Shown here piece after piece: positions 59,129 through 60,475 of a DNA stretch of 64,000 nt (its first letter is position 1; every line of letters starts with the position of its first letter). A program made the position numbers and the translations under genes. The DNA lies in NCBI RefSeq assembly GCF_055900595.2, contig NZ_CM148325.1, one strand, 5' to 3'. Under the pieces are notes generated by a model. The model worked only from the letters and a program-made list of their open reading frames with translations. It did no database searches and had not been told where the DNA came from.

Positions 59129-59137
59129 CGCCAGGCC
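59129..59137. repeat. IS10 target-site duplication, left copy (CGCCAGGCC)
   Basis: Identical 9-mer directly abuts both IS10 ends. Confidence 0.9.
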
Positions 59138-59183
59138 CTGATGAATCCCCTAATGATTTTTATCAAAATCATTAAGTTAAGGT

Positions 59184-59252
59184 AGATACACATCTTGTCA
59201 TATGATCAAATGGTTTCGCCAAAAATCAATAATCAGACAACAAAATGTGCGA
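59184..59252 (-). ncRNA. IS10 RNA-OUT antisense RNA (position inferred from canonical IS10 layout)
   Basis: Canonical IS10 places pOUT transcription from about nt 115 outward to about nt 47; mapped onto this copy by offset from the outside end. Confidence 0.5.
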
Positions 59253-60453
59253 ACTCGATATTTTACACGACTCTCTTTACCAATTCTGCCCCGAATTACA
59301 CTTAAAACGACTCAACAGCTTAACGTTGGCTTGCCACGCCTTACTTGACTGTAAAACTCTCACTCTTACCGAACTTGGCCGTAACCTGCCAACCAAAGCG
59401 AGAACAAAACATAACATCAAACGAATCGACCGATTGTTAGGTAATCGTCACCTCCACAAAGAGCGACTCGCTGTATACCGTTGGCATGCTAGCTTTATCT
59501 GTTCGGGCAATACGATGCCCATTGTACTTGTTGACTGGTCTGATATCCGTGAGCAAAAACGGCTTATGGTATTGCGAGCTTCAGTCGCACTACACGGTCG
59601 TTCTGTTACTCTTTATGAGAAAGCGTTCCCGCTTTCAGAGCAATGTTCAAAGAAAGCTCATGACCAATTTCTAGCCGACCTTGCGAGCATTCTACCGAGT
59701 AACACCACACCGCTCATTGTCAGTGATGCTGGCTTTAAAGTGCCATGGTATAAATCCGTTGAGAAGCTGGGTTGGTACTGGTTAAGTCGAGTAAGAGGAA
59801 AAGTACAATATGCAGACCTAGGAGCGGAAAACTGGAAACCTATCAGCAACTTACATGATATGTCATCTAGTCACTCAAAGACTTTAGGCTATAAGAGGCT
59901 GACTAAAAGCAATCCAATCTCATGCCAAATTCTATTGTATAAATCTCGCTCTAAAGGCCGAAAAAATCAGCGCTCGACACGGACTCATTGTCACCACCCG
60001 TCACCTAAAATCTACTCAGCGTCGGCAAAGGAGCCATGGATTCTAGCAACTAACTTACCTGTTGAAATTCGAACACCCAAACAACTTGTTAATATCTATT
60101 CGAAGCGAATGCAGATTGAAGAAACCTTCCGAGACTTGAAAAGTCCTGCCTACGGACTAGGCCTACGCCATAGCCGAACGAGCAGCTCAGAGCGTTTTGA
60201 TATCATGCTGCTAATCGCCCTGATGCTTCAACTAACATGTTGGCTTGCGGGCGTTCATGCTCAGAAACAAGGTTGGGACAAGCACTTCCAGGCTAACACA
60301 GTCAGAAATCGAAACGTACTCTCAACAGTTCGCTTAGGCATGGAAGTTTTGCGGCATTCTGGCTACACAATAACAAGGGAAGACTCACTCGTGGCTGCAA
60401 CCCTGCTTACTCAAAATCTATTCACACATGGTTACGTTTTGGGGAAATTATGA
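59245..60453 (+). CDS. IS10 transposase
   Basis: 402 aa, [34 protein letters not shown]...; full length. Confidence 0.95.
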
Positions 60454-60466
60454 GGGGATCTCTCAG

Positions 60467-60475
60467 CGCCAGGCC
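60467..60475. repeat. IS10 target-site duplication, right copy (CGCCAGGCC)
   Basis: Identical to 59129..59137. Confidence 0.9.

Follow-up and report, generated by a model that had tools for sequence, protein, structure and literature searches.

The ghrA gene in the stretch of DNA analysed here (64,000 nucleotides of contig NZ_CM148325.1, NCBI RefSeq assembly GCF_055900595.2; hereafter the window) is split in two by an insertion sequence, which raises the questions of how the element came to lie there, whether it can still move and whether it says anything about the history of the strain. The original prediction described a full-length 1329-bp IS10 that splits ghrA, has both termini and an uninterrupted transposase of 402 aa, and is flanked by an exact target repeat of 9 bp; this description, coordinates included, proved accurate. 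We consider it very probable that a single element of the IS10-Left type moved by cut-and-paste transposition into the chromosomal ghrA of a natural-lineage E. coli, in a simple and recent event that inactivated GhrA. The DDE transposase of IS10 would have made staggered cuts 9 bp apart at CGCCAGGCC, in codons 172-175 of ghrA, and repair of the resulting gaps would have produced the exact duplication of CGCCAGGCC on either side of the element.

The element, its insertion site and the fate of ghrA

The two copies of CGCCAGGCC, exact over 9 bp, lie at positions 59129-59137 to the left (nt 515-523 of ghrA) and 60467-60475 to the right of the element, and the span enclosed by them, 59138-60466, is exactly 1329 bp long. 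The element is read on the plus strand, with its outside end at 59138 and its inside end at 60466. A 9-bp identity at two fixed positions is expected by chance with p ~4e-6, and an identity of 1329 bp with known IS10 copies is far beyond chance; copies 100% identical to the element over its full length are held by many complete E. coli genomes and plasmids. The termini, CTGATGAATCCCCTAATGATTTT and (the opposite end taken as reverse complement) CTGAGAGATCCCCTCATAATTTC, form imperfect inverted repeats that agree at 17 of 23 positions. IS10 is expected to measure about 1329 bp and to be bounded by imperfect inverted repeats of ~23 bp (CTGATGAATCCCC... at the outside end, CTGAGAGATCCCC... at the inside end); the element has this size and these repeats, and both ends, as predicted, are of IS10 type and do not differ from the ends of either IS10 copy in a Tn10. 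The outside-end repeat (59138-59160, plus strand, element bp 1-23) is the same as in both Tn10 copies throughout, the differences between Left and Right alleles starting at bp 24, and the inside-end repeat occupies 60444-60466 on the minus strand.

The transposase gene (59245-60453, plus strand) starts with an ATG at element bp 108 and encodes 402 aa without interruption. In NCBIfam its product reached 402 bits with the IS4-family equivalog NF033591 (transpos_IS4_2; cut-off 152), and it matched the Pfam domain DDE_Tnp_1 (PF01609) with an E-value of 2.4e-24, and all six residues expected of the catalytic core are in place, namely D97, D161 and E292 together with Y285, R288 and K299 of the Y-(2)-R-(3)-E-(6)-K motif. 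On the opposite strand, the gene for the antisense RNA, RNA-OUT, extends over 59183-59252 (minus strand; element bp 115 to bp 47), covers the transposase start codon and is aimed outward at the ghrA 3' fragment and ycdX. It matched Rfam family RF00240 over its full length (97.3 bits vs. a gathering score of 41, E = 5e-20), and is predicted to fold into a 69-nt hairpin of -21.3 kcal/mol, compared with -23.9 kcal/mol for the R allele. A simple promoter scan picked up neither pIN nor pOUT in the element, and their placement here follows the literature and the Rfam match to RNA-OUT. The element contains only two GATC sites, at bp 67 (59204-59207, element bp 67-70, overlapping the -10 region of the transposase promoter pIN) and at bp 1320 (60457-60460, element bp 1320-1323, within the inside-end repeat); at these two places, one in pIN and one near the inside terminus, IS10 is known to have methylation-sensitive Dam sites (PMC5006887). 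With 99.9% identity to the copy on the jemA/gltS side of Tn10 and 98.8% to the copy on the tetD side, the element shows every defining feature of IS10 that sequence can test. NCBI PGAP labels such elements 'ISVsa5 family'.

The site before insertion is preserved in E. coli AST85, the complete genome closest to the window, which has a single CGCCAGGCC at this position and an intact, annotated ghrA between ycdX and tRNA-Ser. When positions 59138-60475 are removed, the window between 57001 and 64000 and AST85 can be aligned gap-free over 5662 bp, of which 2 are mismatched, and excision restores, as had been predicted, the 312-aa ghrA reading frame, whose product is identical to the annotated GhrA of AST85. 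This was a simple insertion, without deletion or rearrangement. To the left of the element, a 25-kb stretch agrees at ~100% with seven complete genomes of human isolates, i.e., AST85 (Japan), E200086, 100117, 100248, E500002, E400634 and E600003. Only 9 records match this 25-kb backbone at ≥99%, and therefore the many K-12 and B laboratory genomes searched must fall in the 95-99% band; all of the 9 that were listed are natural isolates, neither K-12 nor B. Because the nearest relatives keep an intact ghrA and none of the 5426 complete E. coli genomes in RefSeq has the junction found in the window (same orientation), we agree with the prediction that the insertion is recent, and since the close relatives have the empty site, it must be younger than the split from them.

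Two further differences from AST85 were seen in the window. An element of the IS200/IS605 family lies between fabF and pabC (3608-4326), where AST85 has none, and AST85 has a copy of its own, 99.9% identical, between yceK and mdoH, a position that is empty in the window (~44003-44012); the positions of IS200 therefore also vary among near-identical strains. In addition, about 250 of the 257 differences between the two strains over 4319-28757 cluster at ~11000-25000, across rne and the flg genes, where identity is ~98.9%, as against 99.94-99.97% over 28000-64000. Within the flagellar/rne region, this stretch has the appearance of a recombination tract.

With residues 1-312 of 312 aligned, the restored GhrA reached 683 bits in PRK15469, the GhrA equivalog model of NCBIfam, whose cut-off is 403. 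In the window the gene, which is read on the minus strand, is present as two halves 1.3 kb apart. The 5' fragment (60467-60989, gene nt 1-523) runs on into the element to give a 185-aa product composed of 174 native residues and 11 read from the IS; as judged from the reading frames and the comparison with AST85, the 3' fragment (58713-59137, gene nt 515-939) is cut off from the promoter and the start codon. No protein record matches the exact GhrA-IS fusion product in either its 185-aa or its 198-aa start variant. The break after residue 174 parts the GXGXXG NAD-binding loop from the C-terminal half, which in the D-2-hydroxyacid dehydrogenase family carries the catalytic Arg, Glu and His. Because the NAD-binding loop is separated from the catalytic part, the insertion should inactivate GhrA, and the predicted loss of its activity is to be expected. 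E. coli has a second enzyme with the same activity, GhrB, and the phenotype is for this reason expected to be mild, the loss of GhrA being presumably buffered by this paralogue. The outside end of the element faces the ghrA 3' fragment, so that pOUT and RNA-OUT run on the coding strand of this fragment, ycdX and ycdY, and a simple scan of that strand for terminator-like sites gave none in the interval from the element to ycdX. Outward transcription from pOUT might offset a polar effect of the insertion on ycdX-ycdY.

The Left allele and the prospects of mobility

The allele was typed by aligning the element with both IS10 arms of the Tn10 on plasmid NZ_CP029979.1. It differs from the arm on the gltS/jemA side at 1 of 1329 nt (bp 234) and from the arm on the tetD side at 16 nt, that is, at bp 24, 25, 27, 47, 83, 107, 203, 410, 425, 903, 1249, 1268, 1271, 1272, 1281 and 1300; at all 16 of these diagnostic positions it agrees with the gltS-side arm. 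Four of the 16 differences change amino acids (V266I, L381S, A389T and A398V). Two of the others affect the region of antisense control: bp 83 falls within the 5' end of RNA-IN and the RNA-OUT loop, and the change at bp 107, directly 5' of the ATG, replaces a G-C pair in the stem of RNA-OUT by G-U. The order of Tn10 is, reportedly according to Chalmers et al. in 2000, IS10L-jemABC-tetR-tetA-tetC-tetD-IS10R, and the outside end of the tetD-side arm, ...GATTTTGGTAAAAATC..., is what we take to be the canonical IS10R substrate. The tetD arm is accordingly assigned to IS10-Right and the jemA arm to IS10-Left on the strength of the published gene order. By this naming, which rests on the Tn10 map and on the IS10R outside end, the element is of the IS10-Left type from end to end.

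The element thus has in common with the IS10-Left of Tn10 (IS4 family, IS10 group) its 1329 bp, the ends, the 402-aa transposase, RNA-OUT, the Dam sites and the 9-bp duplication, but has G instead of A at bp 234 (E43, not K43) when compared with the Left arm on NZ_CP029979.1. It also differs from the IS10-Left of Tn10 in being solitary: within the 64-kb window neither a second IS10 end nor any match to the Tn10 interior (tet and jem genes) was found, and the composite arrangement of Tn10, in which two inverted IS10 copies surround tetR/tetA/tetC/tetD and jemABC, is absent from it. With IS10-Right, the reference active IS10 (J01829), it shares 98.8% nucleotide identity and the overall architecture, the DDE and YREK residues, the pOUT region and bp 1-23 being alike and the two standing 16 nt and 4 aa apart. 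As to the reference Tn10 itself, the Left arm on NZ_CP029979.1 bears a private change, G234A (E43K), and an IS5 lies in the tetD region (5648-6628 of the reference locus, L001).

The original prediction that the element is still mobile stands only in part. In favour of it, the element retains all known cis- and trans-acting parts (the outside and inside ends, the transposase, RNA-OUT and the Dam sites), identical copies occur at many loci, an indirect sign of activity, and de novo insertion of an IS10L into a plasmid was observed in NEB5alpha (PMC11481808). On the other hand, the element has the Left allele at 16 of 16 positions, the transposase of this allele is said to be weak or inactive (PMC11148124), and the 64 kb contain no second copy. 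Classically, the Left arm is the weaker of the two, with transposition reported to be 10- to 100-fold lower. Because the Left allele is weak or inactive in the one study and was seen to transpose de novo in the other, we regard current mobility as no more than plausible; the element would be potentially mobile, probably at the low rate of IS10-Left.

A second insertion at the same nine base pairs

Among the complete E. coli genomes, a single one, the unrelated strain B1172 (NZ_CP120549.1, isolated from human faeces in the Czech Republic), carries a ghrA junction with IS10 in the opposite orientation, and there the gene is annotated as two pseudogene halves. The IS10 of B1172, at 3159-4487 of the corresponding locus (L002), is of the L-type, lies 1 nt apart from the element in the window and has the identical 9-bp target and duplication, CGCCAGGCC. 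The two insertions thus have the gene, the target and the duplication in common, but differ in orientation and strain background, and because of these two differences the insertion in B1172 is an independent event.

Two independent insertions at one position of the 939-bp ghrA would coincide at random roughly once in 900 cases. The target consensus of IS10 is given as NGCTNAGCN in its strict and as NRCNNNGYN in its relaxed form (PMC4574204, PMC10294622). The relaxed form is matched by CGCCAGGCC in full and the strict one at 4 of its 6 specified positions, the other two being symmetric transitions (T>C and A>G). There is no perfect strict NGCTNAGCN site anywhere in ghrA, and the sequence NGCYNRGCN occurs in the gene only 3 times, the CGCCAGGCC site being one of the three. 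Since the site is among the three best matches to the IS10 target in ghrA, its reuse can be accounted for without selection, and the choice of this site in the window would likewise reflect the target preference of IS10.

Selection beyond target preference, whether for the loss of GhrA or for expression of ycdX-ycdY driven by pOUT, is nevertheless a conceivable cause of the recurrence, given that the same 9 bp were hit twice independently and given the outward orientation of pOUT and RNA-OUT along the ghrA/ycdX coding strand of the window with no terminator-like site before ycdX. We consider this explanation improbable: the insertion is found in only 2 of ~5400 genomes, the opposite orientation in B1172 means that pOUT cannot be a benefit shared by the two strains, and the rank of the site among the three best targets in ghrA is enough to explain its reuse.

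Within the preferred reading, that of an IS10-Left-type transposition guided by target preference, a more far-reaching proposal can be made. CGCCAGGCC at codons 172-175 of ghrA may be a true natural hot spot of IS10, hit independently in unrelated human isolates, and solitary copies of the IS10-Left type, which textbooks treat as the 'defective' arm of Tn10, may be autonomously active in wild E. coli. We put this forward tentatively and think it rather doubtful; if true, the classical gap in activity between the Left and Right arms would count for little in nature.

Natural distribution of IS10 and the origin of the insertion

IS10 matches are present in 1902 of the 5426 complete E. coli genomes, i.e., about a third and mostly natural isolates, and full-length copies in 1173 of them. 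IS10-bearing E. coli come from humans, poultry including chickens, pigs, dogs and other hosts, from food and from sewage, and include laboratory strains; the exact sequence of the transposase in the window occurs on at least 1000 contigs. Because IS10 is so widespread in natural isolates, the backbone around the element is that of natural isolates and no Tn10 genes are present in the window, the suggestion that IS10 marks a Tn10-exposed laboratory lineage is not supported here.

With the full-length L sequence of IS10 as query, 1387 records matched at ≥99% and 911 in the 95-99% band, and the UniRef clusters of the L and R transposases have 793 and 189 members, respectively. The first 110 bp of IS10, which contain 6 L/R positions, are a discriminating query, and at ≥99% the R-type of this segment matched 1977 records and the L-type 749. 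The full-length matches and the cluster sizes had pointed to the L-type as the predominant natural IS10 allele, an idea that was dropped because R-type outside ends predominate (1977 vs. 749 records). From the 1387 full-length L matches set against 749 matches to the L-type first 110 bp, it follows that many natural copies must be mosaics, and natural E. coli IS10 would thus appear to include many Left/Right mosaics.

A cloning or propagation artefact, which the original prediction also named, is conceivable if the genome, or this region of it, was propagated as cloned DNA: the element could have hopped from the genome of a K-12 host such as DH10B, DH5alpha or JM109 into a cloned insert, and the source strain would then lack the insertion. 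Jumping of IS10 into cloned DNA is well documented (PMC4574204, PMC8867978), IS10L is present in DH10B and JM109 (PMC11148124), a DH5alpha assembly holds an identical L-type copy, and no other assembly with the junction of the window was found. Such a transfer can be seen in the databases, where the UniRef100 cluster of the IS10-Right transposase is represented by a 'human' cDNA product, Q6AW98_HUMAN (DKFZp686P13170), evidently an IS10 that jumped into a human cDNA clone. Against this origin in the present case, the window contains nothing clone-like, e.g., vector sequence, shotgun sequencing of bacterial genomes nowadays involves no cloning step, and the same element is common in natural isolates, one of which, B1172, was hit at the same site. 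We therefore judge an artefact of cloning or propagation to be very unlikely, with nothing in the window pointing to it. IS copies are a classic source of misassembly, but the misplacement of an IS10 from elsewhere in the genome into ghrA would not yield an exact target repeat of 9 bp, a length specific to IS10, nor would the flanks then join seamlessly once the element is excised, and the chance that the assembly is at fault is negligible. A natural transposition into ghrA explains everything observed, given that the element is common in natural isolates and that B1172 carries it at the same site.

The insertion is an ordinary IS10 event in a dispensable gene and belongs to biology that is already known. 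The ghrA of this strain is to be annotated as an IS10-disrupted pseudogene and the strain as reliant on GhrB for the reduction of glyoxylate and hydroxypyruvate. Absent as it is from all the complete RefSeq E. coli genomes, the insertion is useful as a strain-specific marker, and it is not to be taken as a sign of laboratory ancestry. Its recurrence in B1172 provides a small, tidy illustration of the target preference of IS10.
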